From contig JBDRBK010000149.1 in NCBI GenBank assembly GCA_043822705.1, positions 1 through 15,141 of the forward strand: a stretch of DNA of 15,141 bases, read 5' to 3'. The translations under genes and the position numbers were made by a program. Origin of the DNA: Fidelibacterota bacterium (GTDB lineage Bacteria > Fidelibacterota > Marinisomatia > Marinisomatales > TCS56). The notes beneath the pieces were generated by a model. It made no database searches and was not told where the DNA came from. It saw nothing but the letters and a program-made list of their open reading frames with translations. Below are positions 985 through 13,302 of the stretch, piece after piece (the first letter of the stretch is position 1; each line of letters opens with the position of its first letter).

Positions 985-1083
985 TCACCCTTCGATAAGC
1001 TCAGGGTGACATTTGGAAATAAAATGTTATGCCATGCTGAGCCTGTCCCTGCCCGCCAGAGGCACGCAGGCGGGGAAGCATGA
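985..1083. repeat. Pair of TGTCA(CCC/TGC)TGAGCYTRTCGAAG-type repeats; the second carries a 27-nt insert
   Basis: 985-1011 reads TGTCACCCTGAGCTTATCGAAGGGTGA on the minus strand. 1030-1083 reads TGCCATGCTGAGCCTGTC[insert 1048-1074]GAAGCATGA. The same family occurs at 10975-11069. Confidence 0.85.
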
Positions 1084-1141
1084 CCTGAATAGTCACCTCC
1101 AATGGCACAACTGACCACTTACCCCTGATTCCTGCATCCTG

Positions 1142-4867: not shown

Positions 4868-7216
4868 TCACTTCAACGACTTCGGTTTGAAATTCACAAA
4901 CACCAGCGGCATTACCGTCAGCGCCCCGAAAGCCGATGTCAGCATCGTCATGGCGATCAGGGTGCCCAGGTGCGCCACCGAAACGAATTGCGATAGACCG
5001 ATCACGGCAAAACCAGCGGCCACCACCAGCGAATTAAAGGCAATCGCCACACCCGAATCTTCCATCGTGGCGATAACGGCCTGCGCGTAATCCCCGCTTT
5101 GCCCCAGCTTGCGCCGGTAGCGATACATGAAATGGATGGCGTAGTCCACGCCCACACCGATGGCGATGCTGGAGGTCATCATCGTGGTCATATTCACATT
5201 GATTCCCGACAGACCCATTACGGTAAAATTCAGCAGCATGGCAAAAAACAGCGGGATTGTGTTGAATAGTCCGATGATCGGCGATTTGAACATGAAACTG
5301 GTAATCAGCCAGACCAGAATCAGGGAGACAGTGATACTCAGGATTTGACCGGATACGACCAGGTCATCCACCACCAGAATCAAGCGCGCCATGCCGGTTA
5401 CGGCGGTGGCGGTATTCTCAAAATGATCGTCGATATAATCCTGCAGTTCGGCGTTGATCAGTCGCAATTCGGACTGTTTATCGGTATTCAGGAAAATCGT
5501 CATCAGCGTATTGCGATAATCATAATCGACGATGCTGGCCATGTCGTCGGGTTTGCCGGACATTTCGTAGAGGGTCAGGTACTGGGCGACCAGTTCGTTG
5601 CCCGAGACGGTATCATAGCGGGTCACTTCGATCCATTCGCCGTTTTGCTGTTCGAAATCAGTGTAATCCACTACCACCTGCTCGGCCGGCACGACATTAT
5701 AGGTGTCATCATCACCGTGGAGCACTTTATTAAAGCGTTTCACGAAATCCGCCAGCGAACGGGCGTCGCCCACATGCTCCAGTTGCAGAGCCGTCTGTTT
5801 CAGGCCGTCCAGGTCGGCCAGGATACGCGGGTCCTTCATCTGGTCGTCGGCTACGCCTTCCACCATGATCTGAAAGGAATTAGTGCCGGCAAAATGCTGA
5901 TTGATCAGTCCGTCAGCCACCCGCACCGGATGATCGCGGTCAAAATTCTCGATTGATGAAAAGGAATGCTCGAGCCGGCTGAAACCCCATATCGCAAAAA
6001 CCACGACCAGGACGCCCAGCGGGTACAGCGCCTTACGGTTTTTCACCAGCAGCCGGCCCCAGGCGGTCATCAGTTTGATGGACACCGGCGCCTTGTCCGT
6101 CTGTCGCACCCGCTGCGGTACTTTCAGCAGGGAGAGCACGGCCGGAACCAGCGTCAGGCTCAGCAGCAGGGCGTACAGTACGCCCAGGGCGGTGAAAGCG
6201 CCCATGATCCGGATCGATTCAATTTTGGTAATGCCCAGGCTCATGAAGCCGGCCATGGTGGTCAGCGAAGTCATGATTACCGGTGCATTCATGTCGGCCA
6301 TGGTGATCCGGACCAGTTCCCGGCGGTCTTTAGCCTTTCGTCCATGGGTGTAATAATGGGTCATGATATGAATACTGTCAGCCACGGCGATCGCCATGAT
6401 CAGGATCGGCAGAATCTCGGTGGAATGGGACATGGGGAAGCCCAAAAATGCCATCGTACCCAGCGTCCAGAGTACCGAAAGGATCACCACCAGCAACGGC
6501 AGAATCACACCACGCACGTTGCGGTAAATCGCCAGCAGCAGCAGGAATATCACCAGGATGCCCACCGCGAAAAACATTCCCAGATCCTTCATCACACCCC
6601 AGGCTACGTAATAGGAGGCCACCGGTTTGCCGGCGGGAATCAGAGTCAGGTCGGTTTTCAGGTCCCAGTCCTTGATGAAAGGGACGAAATCGGCCATGAA
6701 ATCCATGTCGTCGGTGGTATTCTTGAGCATCAACATGATACCGAACATTTTGCCATCCCGCGACACCAGGTTGCCCAGAGCCAGATCGTTGTTGAACAAC
6801 CTTTCCCTGAAGGATGCCACTTCGGCAGCATCAACCGGCGGTCCGGTCAGGATATCCTGCACCTCCATCCCGTCCGCGGTGCCGCTGATCACATTGACGT
6901 TAGTGGGCGACAATACCTGGTACACCTCGGGAAAATTTTCCAGTTCGGCGGTCAGGTCCCAGACGTCACGCAGGGCAGCCGGCGTAAACAGTGCTTCACC
7001 CTCCACGCCGATGAATACAAAATCCTTGGTGGGGAAAATCTCGGTCATCTTGTCGTACAGCCGTTTGGCGGGAATCTGCTGCGGCAGGGCATCGGTAATA
7101 TCAGGGTCCATGCGCAGTTTGGGCATCTGGCTAAAAAATCCGGCGGTGATCAGGACGATAGCGATCAGATACAACCGGGGCCGGTCAATCACTGTGGCGG
7201 TCAATTTTTTTAACAT
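4868..7216 (-). CDS. MMPL/RND-superfamily transporter
   Basis: 782 aa with two repeats of a transmembrane helix, periplasmic domain and 5 helices. Motifs AIAVADSIH, TSLTTMAGF and GVGVDYAIH. Confidence 0.92.
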   Translation of the reverse strand: MLKKLTATVIDRPRLYLIAIVLITAGFFSQMPKLRMDPDITDALPQQIPAKRLYDKMTEIFPTKDFVFIGVEGEALFTPAALRDVWDLTAELENFPEVYQVLSPTNVNVISGTADGMEVQDILTGPPVDAAEVASFRERLFNNDLALGNLVSRDGKMFGIMLMLKNTTDDMDFMADFVPFIKDWDLKTDLTLIPAGKPVASYYVAWGVMKDLGMFFAVGILVIFLLLLAIYRNVRGVILPLLVVILSVLWTLGTMAFLGFPMSHSTEILPILIMAIAVADSIHIMTHYYTHGRKAKDRRELVRITMADMNAPVIMTSLTTMAGFMSLGITKIESIRIMGAFTALGVLYALLLSLTLVPAVLSLLKVPQRVRQTDKAPVSIKLMTAWGRLLVKNRKALYPLGVLVVVFAIWGFSRLEHSFSSIENFDRDHPVRVADGLINQHFAGTNSFQIMVEGVADDQMKDPRILADLDGLKQTALQLEHVGDARSLADFVKRFNKVLHGDDDTYNVVPAEQVVVDYTDFEQQNGEWIEVTRYDTVSGNELVAQYLTLYEMSGKPDDMASIVDYDYRNTLMTIFLNTDKQSELRLINAELQDYIDDHFENTATAVTGMARLILVVDDLVVSGQILSITVSLILVWLITSFMFKSPIIGLFNTIPLFFAMLLNFTVMGLSGINVNMTTMMTSSIAIGVGVDYAIHFMYRYRRKLGQSGDYAQAVIATMEDSGVAIAFNSLVVAAGFAVIGLSQFVSVAHLGTLIAMTMLTSAFGALTVMPLVFVNFKPKSLK

Positions 7217-7824
7217 CAGTTATCCTTATTCAATAAGTTGGTTAGGCTGCGGACAAACAGGTTCAATTCCTCTTCCAGAGCCGCTTTGACGACGCCCTGG
7301 TGAATTTTTCCGGCCAGGCCGGACATGTAGGTCCAGACCATCCCGGCGATCACCCGGGAATCATAGCCGGAACCGGTGGCACTAAAAATTTCATTCATGC
7401 GGTGCTGGACCGGCTCATGCAAACGGCGGATTTCAGCGATTACTTCCGGTTCATGGATAACCTGCACCGGGGCATTTTTTCCCATCGGGTAATGCAGACC
7501 GAAAAAAGCCGGGTCCTCGTAGGCCCAGTCCACATAGGCGTTGAGCATGCGCTGCAGCAGTTGTTCCAGGCCGGACACCGCCACGATATTTTCCTCCAGC
7601 CGCCGGAACTGGGCCCGGACACAGGTGAGAAACAACTCACGGTAGATGGCCTCTTTGTTGGGGAAATAATAATAGATCGTGGCCTTGCCCAGCTCGGAAG
7701 CTTCGGCGATATCGGCCATCGTCGTCTCCTGGTAGCCTTTTCGGGAATACAACTCCTTGGCCGCCGCCAGGATGGCTTCGATTCTCAATTGTTTTTCACG
7801 TTCTTTGCGATCTGTCAGTGACAT
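7216..7824 (-). CDS. TetR/AcrR family transcriptional regulator
   Basis: 202 aa with N-terminal HTH ILAAAKELYSRKGYQETTMADIAEASELGKATIYYYFPNKE. The stop overlaps the MMPL start by 1 nt. Confidence 0.95.
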   Translation of the reverse strand: MSLTDRKEREKQLRIEAILAAAKELYSRKGYQETTMADIAEASELGKATIYYYFPNKEAIYRELFLTCVRAQFRRLEENIVAVSGLEQLLQRMLNAYVDWAYEDPAFFGLHYPMGKNAPVQVIHEPEVIAEIRRLHEPVQHRMNEIFSATGSGYDSRVIAGMVWTYMSGLAGKIHQGVVKAALEEELNLFVRSLTNLLNKDN

Positions 7825-8019: not shown

Positions 8020-8919
8020 ATGCTCAATGAAATCCATTTTCTACTGACCTACACCTGTCTAAATGAATGTGATCACTGTTTTCTATATTGTGGGCCGGAG
8101 TCCAAGGGCACGTTCACGGTCGAACAACTTCGTCAGGTTTTCGTCGAAATTGCCAAAATTGACTCGATCGACAAAGTGTATTTCGAAGGCGGCGAAGCCT
8201 TCCTCTATTACCCCCTACTGCTGGAAGGCATTCGTCTGGCCCGAGCCCGGGGATTGGCAGTGGGCATCGTCACCAATTCCTACTGGGCCACTTCGGTGGC
8301 CGACGCCGAGCTGTGGCTCAAACCGCTGGTGGAACTGGGTATCGCTGATATTTCCATGAGCGATGATTCATTTCATTTCAGCGATGAAAAAAATCCCGCC
8401 AAATTCGCCCTGCAGACCGCCAAAAACCTGGGGATGGCCGCCGGCGCAATCTGCATCGAAGAACCCACGGTCGCACCAAATCCCACGGCGATGGGCGAAG
8501 CGGTGGTTGGCGGCGGCGTCATCTTCCGCGGCCGGGCGGTGGAAAAACTATCACAGGGATTGCCCACCCGACCGGCCGGCGAACTGACCACCTGCCCCTT
8601 CGAAGATCTGGAGAATCCCGGCCGGGTCCATCTGGATGCCTTCGGCCACCTACACCTCTGTCAGGGACTTTCAATGGGCAATATCTGGAAAACACCATTG
8701 TCGGAATTGGTGAAAAATTATTCGGCCGACCGGCACCCAGTCTGCGCACCGCTGCTGGCTGGCGGACCCCAACGGCTGGCACAGGCCCATAGTCTGGACA
8801 GCACCGGCGGGTATATCGCCGAATGCCATTACTGCTACGAGGTGCGAAAACAACTGCTGGACAAATACCCGGATTATCTGGCGCCACGGCAGGTTTATGG
8901 GGTGCAAGATTTATTGTAG
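8020..8919 (+). CDS. Radical SAM protein with C-terminal SPASM/twitch-like cysteines
   Basis: CxxxCxxC motif (CLNECDHC), FEGGEAF, VTNSYWA and C-terminal TCP...HLC...ECHYC. Start moved from TTG 7918 to ATG 8020 because GAGGA lies at 8011-8015, giving 299 aa. Confidence 0.9.
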   Translation: MLNEIHFLLTYTCLNECDHCFLYCGPESKGTFTVEQLRQVFVEIAKIDSIDKVYFEGGEAFLYYPLLLEGIRLARARGLAVGIVTNSYWATSVADAELWLKPLVELGIADISMSDDSFHFSDEKNPAKFALQTAKNLGMAAGAICIEEPTVAPNPTAMGEAVVGGGVIFRGRAVEKLSQGLPTRPAGELTTCPFEDLENPGRVHLDAFGHLHLCQGLSMGNIWKTPLSELVKNYSADRHPVCAPLLAGGPQRLAQAHSLDSTGGYIAECHYCYEVRKQLLDKYPDYLAPRQVYGVQDLL

Positions 8920-9017
8920 GGACAATACATGTGTTATCCCTACCCACAATTACTTTTATTGGCGCTCAACGGAATAATATATTATCAATGTAGCGACGAT
9001 ACATGTGTCGTCGCTAC
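8916..9017. repeat. Two 28-nt GTAG...CTAC REP palindromes (family A)
   Basis: GTAGGGACAATAC-AT-GTGTTATCCCTAC (8916-8943) and GTAGCGACGATAC-AT-GTGTCGTCGCTAC (8990-9017). Confidence 0.85.
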
Positions 9018-9079
9018 CGCAGATATTTAGGAATGGTATCTGTGGGCGGTTCGGCCCACAAAAATTTTACTTTTTGGAT

Positions 9080-9109
9080 AAAAAAAACCGCCGAATAACC
9101 GGCGGTTTT
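9080..9109 (-). terminator. Rho-independent terminator, strongest on the minus strand and possibly bidirectional
   Basis: A8 (9080-9087), CCGCCG, 6-nt loop, CGGCGG, then a T run. On the minus strand this is a GC hairpin followed by U8. Confidence 0.85.
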
Positions 9110-9160
9110 CCAACGATTGATTGATCCAAATGGAATCAGACACCTAATCGCTTGACGGTG
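9080..9160 (-). ncRNA. Candidate ~80-nt small RNA complementary to the adjacent tRNA-like gene
   Basis: Bounded by a predicted promoter (9193-9165) and the terminator, with no ORF. Its 5' part, CGUCAAGCGAUUA...UCCAUUUG, is complementary to the tRNA anticodon arm and D-loop. Transcription is inferred, not shown. Confidence 0.45.
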
Positions 9161-9164
9161 GTAA

Positions 9165-9193
9165 AACTTACCTGCTATGGAGAATTAATGCAA
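9165..9193 (-). promoter_or_regulatory. Putative sigma70 promoter for the candidate sRNA
   Basis: Minus strand TTGCAT (9193-9188), 17-nt spacer, TAAGTT (9170-9165). The predicted start near 9159 is just before the complementary block. Confidence 0.45.
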
Positions 9194-9208
9194 GTAAAAT
9201 AACCTTAG

Positions 9209-9282
9209 TGCCCAGGACCAGATTTGAACTGGCATCTAATCGTACGTCAAGCGATTATGCTATCCATTTGCACCACCTGGGC
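9209..9282 (-). tRNA. Atypical tRNA or tRNA-like RNA, anticodon GAC (nominally Val), CCA not encoded
   Basis: Folded by hand: GCCCAGG-UG-GUGC-AAAUGGAUA-GCAU-A-AUCGC-UUGACGU-ACGAU-UAGAU-GCCAG-UUCAAAU-CUGGU-CCUGGGC-A. It retains U8, A14, G18G19, A21, U33, the A15-U48 pair and the T-loop consensus. There is a C31-A39 mismatch, and CUA follows in place of CCA. Confidence 0.8.
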
Positions 9283-9372
9283 ACTATATTCTTCGGTATT
9301 TCCGTTAAAGTTCCATAAACAGTGTTGAAATATCAAGATGTAAATTTATGTATCTTGTTATAGATTCGGCCC

Positions 9373-10965
9373 ATGCAGGATAGCTATGATTATATTATAA
9401 TTGGTTCCGGTTTCGGTGGCGCGGTGGCGGCCCTGCGGCTGGCGGAGAAAGGTTACCGGGTGGCGGTGCTCGAACAGGGGCGGCGCTACCGTCCCCAGGA
9501 TTTTCCAAAACGTAACTGGAATCTGCGTAAATTTCTGTGGCTGCCGAAAATCGGGCTCTACGGCATCCAGGCCCTGACCCTGCTGAAGGATGTGTTCATC
9601 CTCCACGGCGCCGGTGTGGGCGGCGGCAGCTTGGTCTACGCCAACCAGCTTTTAATCCCCCCCGATGACGTCCTGGACGATCCATCCTGGGGACAACCGG
9701 ACTGGCGCGTTACTATTCTACCCTATTATGACAAAGCCCGACGGATGCTGGGAGCCACCCCGGCCCAGGAAATCACCGTGGCCGATGAGCTCTTGAAGGA
9801 ATGCGCCGCCGATATCGGCCGGGGCGACACCTTTCACGTCAACGAAGTCGGTATCTATTACGGTGAACCGGACCTGACCGTTCCCGACCCCTATTTCGAC
9901 GGCGAAGGTCCCGAGCGCACCGGCTGCATCGCCTGCGGTGCCTGCATGACCGGCTGCCGCCACGGCTCCAAAAACACGCTGGACCTTAATTACCTCTACC
10001 TGGCGGAACAATTAGGCGTGACGATCATCCCGGAAACCAGAGTCAGCGACGTCCGTCCGGGCGGTAACGGCTATATCATTACGACCAGAAATTCCGTGGG
10101 ACTGATACCCCGCCGGCGGCGATTCCAGGTCGGTGGTGTGATTTTTTCCGGTGGCGTGATGGGTACGGTGAAACTACTGCACCAGTGCAAAACCAGGGGA
10201 TCGTTGGCCTCAATATCTGCTCAGTTGGGAAATATCACCCGTACCAACAGCGAAGCGCTGCTGGGGGTGATCGCCCGCAAGAAGGACGTGGATTATTCCG
10301 CTGGGATCGCCATCACATCCGGCGTCCACCCCGACGACAACACCCAGATCGAAACCGTTCGCTACGGCAAAGGCCACGACGCCATGGCCCTGCTGACCAC
10401 CCTGCTGGTCGGGGGCGGCAAACCTTGGCCGCGGCCGTTGCGCTTCCTGGGGAATATTGTGCGGCACCCGCTGACCTTCCTGCGTTTCCTGGTTCCCTTC
10501 GGCTGGGCCCGACGGGCCACGATTCTGCTGGTGATGCAAAAGATCGACAATTACCTGCGGCTGGAATATAAGCGGCGCTGGTGGCGCCTGGGCGGTCGTT
10601 CCATGAACTCCAATTGGCACACGGCCAAGAAGGTGCCGTCGTATATTCCCGTGGCCAACGAATTCGCCCAACGAATGGGCCAAAAAATCAATGGCCGGCC
10701 CTCCAGTTGCCTGCCGGAAGTATTATTCAATACATCTACTACCGCCCATATTTTAGGCGGGTGCGTAATGGCCGATTCACCGGCGGAGGGCGTGATTAAC
10801 CATAATGGTAAAATTCATGGCTACGATAATTTGTACGTAATCGACGGCTCGGTGATCCCCGCCAACCTGGGTGTTAATCCCAGTCTGACGATCACTGCCG
10901 TGGCGGAATATTTGATGGATAAATTTCCGGAAAAAGATGGTCATGGCACGGCAAGTTCACCATGA
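9373..10965 (+). CDS. GMC-family FAD oxidoreductase, cholesterol oxidase (ChoD)-like
   Basis: 530 aa with IIIGSGFGG FAD-binding motif, GAGVGGGSLVYAN, CIACGACMTGC...KNTLDLNYL, TAHILGGC and NLGVNPSLTI. The substrate is not established. Confidence 0.9.
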   Translation: MQDSYDYIIIGSGFGGAVAALRLAEKGYRVAVLEQGRRYRPQDFPKRNWNLRKFLWLPKIGLYGIQALTLLKDVFILHGAGVGGGSLVYANQLLIPPDDVLDDPSWGQPDWRVTILPYYDKARRMLGATPAQEITVADELLKECAADIGRGDTFHVNEVGIYYGEPDLTVPDPYFDGEGPERTGCIACGACMTGCRHGSKNTLDLNYLYLAEQLGVTIIPETRVSDVRPGGNGYIITTRNSVGLIPRRRRFQVGGVIFSGGVMGTVKLLHQCKTRGSLASISAQLGNITRTNSEALLGVIARKKDVDYSAGIAITSGVHPDDNTQIETVRYGKGHDAMALLTTLLVGGGKPWPRPLRFLGNIVRHPLTFLRFLVPFGWARRATILLVMQKIDNYLRLEYKRRWWRLGGRSMNSNWHTAKKVPSYIPVANEFAQRMGQKINGRPSSCLPEVLFNTSTTAHILGGCVMADSPAEGVINHNGKIHGYDNLYVIDGSVIPANLGVNPSLTITAVAEYLMDKFPEKDGHGTASSP

Positions 10966-12813: not shown

Positions 12814-13302
12814 TCATTTTCCCCAATTGCGGGGGTTATTTTTGATATACCATCGAATACGGTCCAAATCGTTTTCATCACGAACAATATGATCATAAAA
12901 ATCACGTTGCCAAATCCGGTGACCTGGGGTGTTTTCCGCCATGTTCATTCTTTTAGTGGAAACGGTTTTAAAGGCTCCGATCAATCTTCCCAGGGGCTTA
13001 ATTTTTCCTGTGCGTTGTTCTGATTTATAAACAACGATTCCGTGTAAATGATCAGGCATTACAATCCACTCATCCAAGTCAATTTACGAATACTGCCGTG
13101 CCAGCCATAGCCAGGTCCGGCGTACAATTTCACCTACCTGATTGCATTTCATCTGCTGTTGTTCAACTTCGCCAAAAAGATGAATTTGGTTCTGGACATT
13201 GATCGTCACAAAATAATAACCGGGACCGGTATAATCACATTCTGGCAGTCGTAGCGAATGACGATTATGGATTTTGGGATCGTACCCGACCTTTTCCTTC
13301 AT
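12814..13302 (-). pseudogene. REP-associated tyrosine transposase (RAYT, Y1 HUH family) with an in-frame premature stop
   Basis: The 72-aa and 87-aa ORFs are in one frame: ...WLARQYS*IDLDEWIVMPDHLHGIV... with TAA at 13086-13084. Motifs RHSLRL...DY...GYYFVTI, HUH (HLH), WQRDFYDHIVR and YIKNNP. Confidence 0.88.

Follow-up and report, generated by a model that had tools for sequence, protein, structure and literature searches.

Among described systems, the closest to the locus analysed here are the type VIII toxin–antitoxin (TA) pairs, such as SdsR/RyeA and CreTA, and the type I pairs, for which hok/sok-type layouts are the reference. In the sections of PMC11869752 available to us, type VIII systems consist of an RNA toxin and an RNA antitoxin, and type I systems of an antisense small RNA directed against a toxin mRNA. 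Two further comparisons involve unusual tRNAs: allo-tRNAs have been found near toxin–antitoxin genes (main texts of PMC5389517 and PMC7609411), with missense suppression lethal in E. coli (main text of PMC5389517), and tRNA-ProX of Streptomyces and Kitasatospora is a dual-identity mistranslating tRNA with codon-dependent toxicity that works with ProRSx (available sections of PMC11415595). The main finding here is a predicted antisense small RNA against the anticodon arm of a tRNA with a GAC anticodon, tRNA(GAC), which a preliminary description of this DNA had missed. The features lie as follows in the window, the whole 15,141-nucleotide stretch of DNA that was analysed.

9209–9282, minus strand: tRNA with anticodon GAC (9246–9248), found by Rfam (RF00005) and ARAGORN; proposed toxin
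9188–9193, minus strand: predicted −35 box TTGCAT, read from the sequence, 17 nt from the −10 box, 3 of 6 consensus positions
9165–9170, minus strand: predicted −10 box TAAGTT; the partner of tRNA base 37 follows after 7 nt
9080–9159, minus strand: predicted anti-tRNA small RNA of about 80 nt with an inferred start, comprising a 5′ seed, a hairpin and a terminator; proposed antitoxin
9145–9157, minus strand: 13-nt exact complement of tRNA bases 25–37 (5′ anticodon stem and loop)
9122–9134, minus strand: imperfect D-arm complement from the repeat search, 85% over 13 nt
9080–9109, minus strand: terminator-like hairpin with 10-bp arms (9084–9093 and 9100–9109) followed by a run of eight U, from sequence and folding

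As in type VIII systems, both partners would be RNA and the antitoxin would pair with the toxin RNA; two adjoining non-coding RNA genes are found, one complementary to the other, with the small RNA gene predicted from the sequence. The proposed toxin differs from those of type VIII in being a full cloverleaf tRNA acting in translation rather than a small RNA, no Cas proteins are present here, and the antitoxin is aimed at an anticodon arm. With type I systems the locus and its relatives share a short antisense RNA, here a predicted one, equipped with a promoter and a terminator of its own and placed in tandem, divergently or convergently, as well as a possible fold-back of the primary transcript in cis, tandem copies and prophage neighbours. 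Unlike in type I, the target is a tRNA, whose anticodon arm is the part matched by the complement, and no toxin ORF is seen among those of 60 aa or more, none of which lies in 8948–9357. Allo-tRNAs likewise have a body whose identity differs from the anticodon; according to the main texts of PMC5389517 and PMC7609411, however, their 12-bp acceptor domain is built as 8/4 or 9/3 and their variable arm is long, whereas tRNA(GAC) has a 7/5 form and a short loop. The tRNA-ProX likeness is that of a dual-identity bacterial tRNA, but the available sections of PMC11415595 describe a Pro body, A33 and a dedicated synthetase, whereas tRNA(GAC) has U33, an antisense partner and no synthetase gene within the window. 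A housekeeping tRNA-Val(GAC) shares A35, C36, A73 and the U32-U33-GAC-R37-U38 loop; tRNA(GAC) departs from it in A20 and A45 (not G20 and G45), C3–G70, C31·A39 and a Leu-like body, in being additional to a canonical copy and in having an antisense partner. A tRNA paired with its own anti-anticodon RNA was not found in the literature searched, a body of text that leaves most subscription journals and supplements outside it. The words antisense and complementary are absent from the main texts of PMC5389517 and PMC7609411; the PMC5389517 supplement showing tRNA loci could bear on novelty.

The tRNA is real and is extra to the canonical copy. Its Rfam match to RF00005 covers the full length of 9209–9282(−) (52.6 bits, model positions 1–71, above the gathering score, with the 31–39 pair flagged as non-standard), and ARAGORN, which the preliminary description had proposed running, calls a tRNA-Val(gac) at 9208–9282(−). 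Every stem and tertiary-contact base is intact, in agreement with the full cloverleaf described earlier, for which the bases listed proved correct: the acceptor stem is GCCCAGG/CCUGGGC with A73 (CCA is absent from the gene), the D-loop GGAUA carries A20 and U20a, A15–U48 is present, and the anticodon arm has U33, G37, U38 and C31·A39. A 255-nt contig from run X1 spans 9059–9313 with 0 differences; it may come from the source sample and so speaks only against an assembly error. The host has a canonical Val(GAC) on contig C13 as well as a Val(CAC), and the tRNA pattern was found in 0 of 300 other genomes of the class. The case that the preliminary description had set against itself, in which this would be the only GAC tRNA and a housekeeping copy conserved across the lineage, is therefore not what the genomes contain. 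ARAGORN finds 42 tRNAs in this 93%-complete assembly and lists no Arg(CCG), His, Gly(GCC), Ala(GGC) or Val(UAC).

The small RNA unit lies about 50 bases downstream of tRNA(GAC) and consists of a predicted sigma-70 promoter, the RNA of about 80 nt and a terminator. The earlier statement that the tRNA stands alone is correct in that ARAGORN finds no other tRNA in the window, but it overlooked the antisense gene predicted just 3′ of it. In a repeat search the anticodon arm (9245–9257) matched 9145–9157 in inverted orientation, perfectly over 13 nt. None of the genome's 41 other tRNAs has a complement longer than 9 nt downstream or 8 nt upstream, against 13 nt here, and 0 of 3000 random 500-bp genome windows reach the score of the 13-nt match, with 11 reaching 10. 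The first 10 bases of the predicted RNA are unpaired, and its predicted binding gain is −10.0 kcal/mol with tRNA(GAC) against −2.6 kcal/mol with the host Val(GAC), with whose loop it shares 7 nt. The promoter and terminator elements were read from the sequence; a consensus scan listed neither, and the −35 box has only three of six consensus matches. The RNA at 9080–9159 belongs to no Rfam family at the gathering score. We consider it highly probable that this is a genuine small RNA gene directed against tRNA(GAC). As tRNA(GAC) itself lacks a terminator, read-through precursors could fold back in cis, and in such a precursor the same pairing does fold (z = −5.3).

The amino acid that tRNA(GAC) would carry was approached through its body and its identity elements. 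In a nearest-neighbour test of 49 positions outside the anticodon arm against 402 reference tRNAs (recovery 23/28 for Val, 32/36 for Leu and 30/38 for Arg), the nearest isotypes were Leu (38 of 49 features), Thr (35), Ile (33), Phe (32) and Arg (32), with Val outside the top five. This bears out the mixed identity first described, a Val anticodon on a non-Val body, together with the resemblance to Leu in a tRNA whose variable loop is short (5 nt); the Leu-like regions are the acceptor and T arms, and the D-loop is of the Arg type. The available sections of PMC9976931 give A35, C36 and A73 as major ValRS determinants and G20, G45 and G3–C70 as minor ones; tRNA(GAC) has all three of the former, with A20, A45 and C3–G70 in place of the latter, and no G·U at pair 3 or 4. 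Of the LeuRS set given there (A73, A15–U48, G18G19, A20a and a long variable arm, the arm being dispensable for E. coli LeuRS), it has the first three, carries U20a instead of A20a and lacks the long arm. Of the ArgRS set (A20, A/G73, C35 and G/U36, same source), it has A20 and A/G73; in register it reads A35 and C36 rather than C35 and G/U36, and a C-G is found at 36–37.

Two of the bases that had been taken as anomalous are, by themselves, rejected as oddities, G37 and A20 both occurring in other tRNAs of genome records and phages. The pair G37-U38 had been thought unusual for Val(GAC), but U38 is also present in the host's canonical copy, and G37-U38 occurs in 4 of 5 phage Val(GAC) genes and in all four ordinary-looking Val(GAC) genes (three Patescibacteria-type records and one Humimicrobiaceae) that, with three non-tRNAs, made up the 7 matches of the genome-collection pattern. 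Similarly, A20 makes a poor stand-alone pointer to Arg, being frequent in non-Arg phage tRNAs (9 of 9 matches in one search, 68 distinct genes in another). On their own, G37 and A20 are weak arguments for mischarging.

That tRNA(GAC) is mischarged is what we infer; the major ValRS determinants, which it keeps, speak against this. Charging with Arg, by an ArgRS that would use A20 and read C36–G37 one base late, is put forward tentatively; charging with Leu is possible, if somewhat improbable, charging with Val is unlikely, and a tRNA left uncharged is very unlikely. Of the rules that could cover all of the wider set of loci described below, the one-base-late reading is the simplest, and it would explain Arg bodies with GNC anticodons. 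The available sections of PMC4742068 describe an ArgRS slide in the 5′ direction (C34–U35) and a yeast ArgRS that C36 blocks when the anticodon is CGC or CUC; the literature searched offered no precedent for a slide in the 3′ direction. The idea that A39 represents a shifted A38 is weakened by the presence of U31–A39 in true Arg(CCU) genes (L304 and L305), and because the pair occurs there A39 may simply be inherited. Two phage tRNAs with the Leu anticodon CAA have a short variable loop (L319 and L274), which suggests that Leu acceptors with a short arm occur naturally.

The locus is an insert with a patchy distribution in relatives. It is flanked by radical SAM and GMC oxidoreductase genes with 453 nt between them, and in three relatives of the same family this gap is about 120–240 nt and contains no tRNA; a contig from run X2 connects 8924 to 9385 through 83 other letters. 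A DNA search found no homologue in 40 relatives or 400 genomes of the phylum, pattern searches had no match in two other phyla (0/251 and 0/301 genomes), and BLAST of tRNA(GAC) against phages and plasmids returned chance-level pieces only. The contig is unlikely to be a contaminant: in tetranucleotide composition it resembles the rest of the bin, with a correlation of 0.963 that ranks it 51 of 110. GTAG-type palindromes, which we take to resemble REP elements, lie at 8915–8944 and 8989–9018, and at 9316–9337, upstream of the gene for the GMC oxidoreductase, there is an imperfect palindrome that could be a regulator site.

A metagenome pattern for tRNAs with A20-U20a and G34-N-C36-G37 matched at least 119 loci; once the window's locus and a locus from a phage had been added and duplicates removed, 89 distinct genes remained. 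The conservation of A20, U20a, G34, C36 and G37 in this set is circular, as the pattern imposes it. Each 20-nt anticodon arm was scored against 250 nt on either side and on both strands, with a cut-off of at least 10 over the anticodon. Among the matches listed, a copy reaching the cut-off accompanies 21 of the 31 distinct A39 tRNAs (the window's included) and 1 of the 58 others, which are mostly ordinary-looking Asp and Val genes, against a cross-pair background of 14/1474. The ten A39 tRNAs among them without a scoring copy include three with short flanks and two that score 8–9 in the same layout. Over all sequences analysed, 30 of 500 tRNA calls score 10 or more, 26 of them in module loci and 4 at other tRNAs.

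The 22 modules so defined resemble the window's locus in construction, and the counts that follow apply to the matches listed. A TAnnnT −10 box stands 6–18 nt upstream of the base-37 partner in 20 modules (the exceptions being L131 and L157) against 13% in controls, and hairpin-U runs follow the copy on its 3′ side in most. Base 35 varies, with A in 16 modules, U in 3 and G in 3, yet every one of the 22 has it paired; bases 29 and 30 each show four pair types, the copy tracks the anticodon (GAC, GUC or GGC), and a C stands opposite G37 in 21 of the 22 small RNAs. The arm-match score is 13.6 for a module's own flank and 7.3 for the flanks of other modules. The copy lies upstream on the opposite strand in 12 modules, downstream on the opposite strand in 4, and downstream in tandem in 5 plus the window's; in the 16 with a copy on the opposite strand, pairing must be in trans. 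A fourth arrangement, tandem upstream, is seen at neighbouring tRNAs (L107 and L125). At 80% identity the modules fall into 8 clusters, one with 10 members, and the window's tRNA is at most 68% identical to any other module member listed; with its Leu-like body, unlike most, it joins the set by architecture rather than by clear descent.

Searches of viral and plasmid sequences returned little of this kind. Three tight viral patterns gave 0, 11 (non-tRNA) and 0 matches, and another returned L062 only. None of 68 phage tRNAs with A20 and A39 and without C35 has an antisense unit, a lone score of 11 being read as a neighbouring tRNA; as this free-anticodon scan was swamped by Thr(UGU) (55/68), it serves as a control only and does not bear on the C36–G37 requirement. 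Plasmid and phage matches of related modules are ordinary tRNAs with one exception, a plasmid-borne tRNA (L309:999–1071) with an Arg-like body, an AAC anticodon, G37 and C31·A39, which has a TTGACA promoter-like site, adjoins a mobF relaxase gene and has no antisense unit within 2 kb. Pfam found no protein neighbour shared among 95 ORFs from the 22 loci; two modules (L099 and L143) adjoin phage integrase and Rad52-like genes, and the large cluster has GlnR and heliorhodopsin neighbours, which suggest freshwater Actinomycetota as its source. A neighbour-protein search in viral contigs found nothing, and in 20 module loci the Rfam matches were to tRNA only, with no small RNA family. An apparent enrichment of G·U pairs in the tRNA/small RNA duplexes was not convincing and was dropped.

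The partner tRNAs are themselves unusual. Most of their bodies are nearest tRNA-Arg in the nearest-neighbour test, and for L143 and L073 BLAST matched annotated tRNA-Arg genes. As G73 is an identity element for Asp and G3·U70 for Ala, module tRNAs with Asp anticodons, which carry A73, and those with Ala anticodons, which have no G3·U70, miss the identity of their own anticodon. Outside the selection pattern, a tRNA at L136:295–366(−) combines an Ala-type G3·U70 body with the Arg anticodon GCG and is followed by its own promoter, an antisense unit scoring 16 and a terminator, making it a cleaner mistranslation candidate than the window's tRNA. Three other, repeated tRNAs, also outside the pattern and with U73 or similar (L107:619–692(+) and 1046–1119(+), L125:2898–2971(−)), have anticodon arms that exceed the usual length by two bases around TGCC. 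Each of these tRNAs, which are candidate frameshift suppressors, is preceded by a tandem antisense unit. Four modules lie within 2 kb at L107.

What is seen in the sequence is a spare tRNA with a mismatched body and anticodon next to a promoter–seed–terminator unit complementary to its anticodon arm. We think it fairly probable that the two genes form an RNA-only module working like a toxin–antitoxin pair, with a mis-decoding tRNA as the toxin; the recurrence of the pairing in unrelated microbes suggests such a pair. Silencing a duplicate of a normal Val tRNA would gain little, whereas a misreading tRNA must be silenced, and an RNA-only TA pair, with tRNA(GAC) as the putatively toxic partner, is the simplest reading. 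The tRNA would be charged with a non-cognate amino acid and deliver it at GUC and GUU valine codons, damaging the proteome, or alternatively would slip frame through the open 31–39 pair. The free 5′ seed of the small RNA would invade the anticodon loop and so block charging or decoding, or mark the duplex for decay, and a read-through precursor could also pair in cis on the same sequence. Loss of the short RNA, through loss of the element or transcriptional shut-off, would release the stable tRNA. For the wider set, the case is evenly balanced that these loci represent a widespread, undescribed class of RNA-only TA modules, in which a tRNA toxin corrupts translation (Arg or Leu at Val, Asp or Ala codons, Ala at Arg codons, or frameshifting) and a small RNA antitoxin pairs with the anticodon arm, the class having arisen several times on different tRNA bodies, with a main group in which ArgRS reads C36–G37 one base out of register.

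An unlikely alternative is that tRNA(GAC) is a regulated accessory tRNA with no role in addiction, providing, in certain conditions, useful low-level mistranslation or extra codon supply, with the small RNA as its off switch. The sequence evidence for the small RNA applies equally to this proposal, the ValRS determinants are present, mistranslation can be adaptive (available sections of PMC11415595), and one cluster among the matches listed comprises 10 related loci, some at the same site. Selfish modules fit better with the varied anticodons and bodies, the tandem and decayed copies (L107 and L130), the prophage neighbours and the absence from relatives, and the host already has a Val(GAC). 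We regard it as improbable that the roles are reversed, with the small RNA a toxin that blocks the host tRNA and the odd tRNA a decoy soaking it up. RNA toxins that sequester tRNA do exist, as CreT illustrates, and the 7 nt common to the small RNA and the host Val(GAC) loop would suit such a toxin; yet the host tRNA has A37, facing the C that these small RNAs place opposite G37, the predicted gain with it is small, and a decoy needs no intact acceptor, D and T arms.

Slightly less probable still is a DNA-level repeat with no RNA function, be it a site of inversion or attachment or a stretch duplicated locally in inverted orientation, next to a foreign tRNA in decay. The insert does adjoin the REP-like palindromes, and two related loci lie near integrases; against this, Pfam found no recombinase family in the remaining loci scanned, none of the 3000 random windows matches as well, and the copies listed, whether direct or inverted, upstream or downstream, nearly all follow closely on a −10 box and mostly terminate in hairpin-U runs. 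A relic of a once-functional module, with the tRNA promoter or charging lost in this copy, is the least probable reading: a promoter scan found no sigma-70 promoter upstream of tRNA(GAC), the 400 phylum and 300 class genomes hold no close relative, and leader and trailer lengthen the acceptor helix to 11 bp, but no stem or tertiary base has been lost and the 13-nt complement retains its perfect match.

If the toxin–antitoxin reading is true, an addiction or defence module could have a tRNA itself as its toxin, bacteria would make natural antisense RNAs against tRNA anticodons, and some of the extra Val, Asp, Ala and Arg tRNAs in annotations would carry the wrong label. It would also offer an answer to the question, posed as open in the available sections of PMC11415595, of how hosts use and control mistranslating tRNAs. 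Such modules would lend themselves to a simple screen, for tRNAs that have an anti-anticodon unit close by. They would also serve as natural cases on which to test the identity rules of synthetases, and synthetic biology would gain a compact missense suppressor that can be switched.

Some module precursors carry further complementary elements. A second anti-anticodon motif, CGTCA, occurs in or at the loop of the tRNA's own terminator hairpin, within the first 45 nt 3′ of the tRNA, in 10 of the 22 modules and in L121 against 1 of 54 controls, among the matches listed (L066, L080, L107, L113, L116, L121, L125, L131, L158, L159 and L178); it may form a kissing loop in cis that holds the precursor inactive. 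At L073, L086 and L155 the end of the leader is complementary to a stretch about 80 nt 3′ of the tRNA (GGAGTGGGG / CCCCACTCC-like), so that a long helix may close off the precursor.

Elsewhere in the window are a TetR gene at 7216–7824(−) and a Y1 transposase-like gene split into two ORFs at 12814–13302(−). The host genome has one ArgRS match. It also contains a copy of the 3′ half of its tRNA-Asp(GTC), as is left after element integration (G000 C90:825–889), and two near-identical class I synthetase matches in frames of 657 and 658 aa (G000 C117:2340–3341 and C186:10391–11395), a pair that is possibly part of the bin's 6% contamination.
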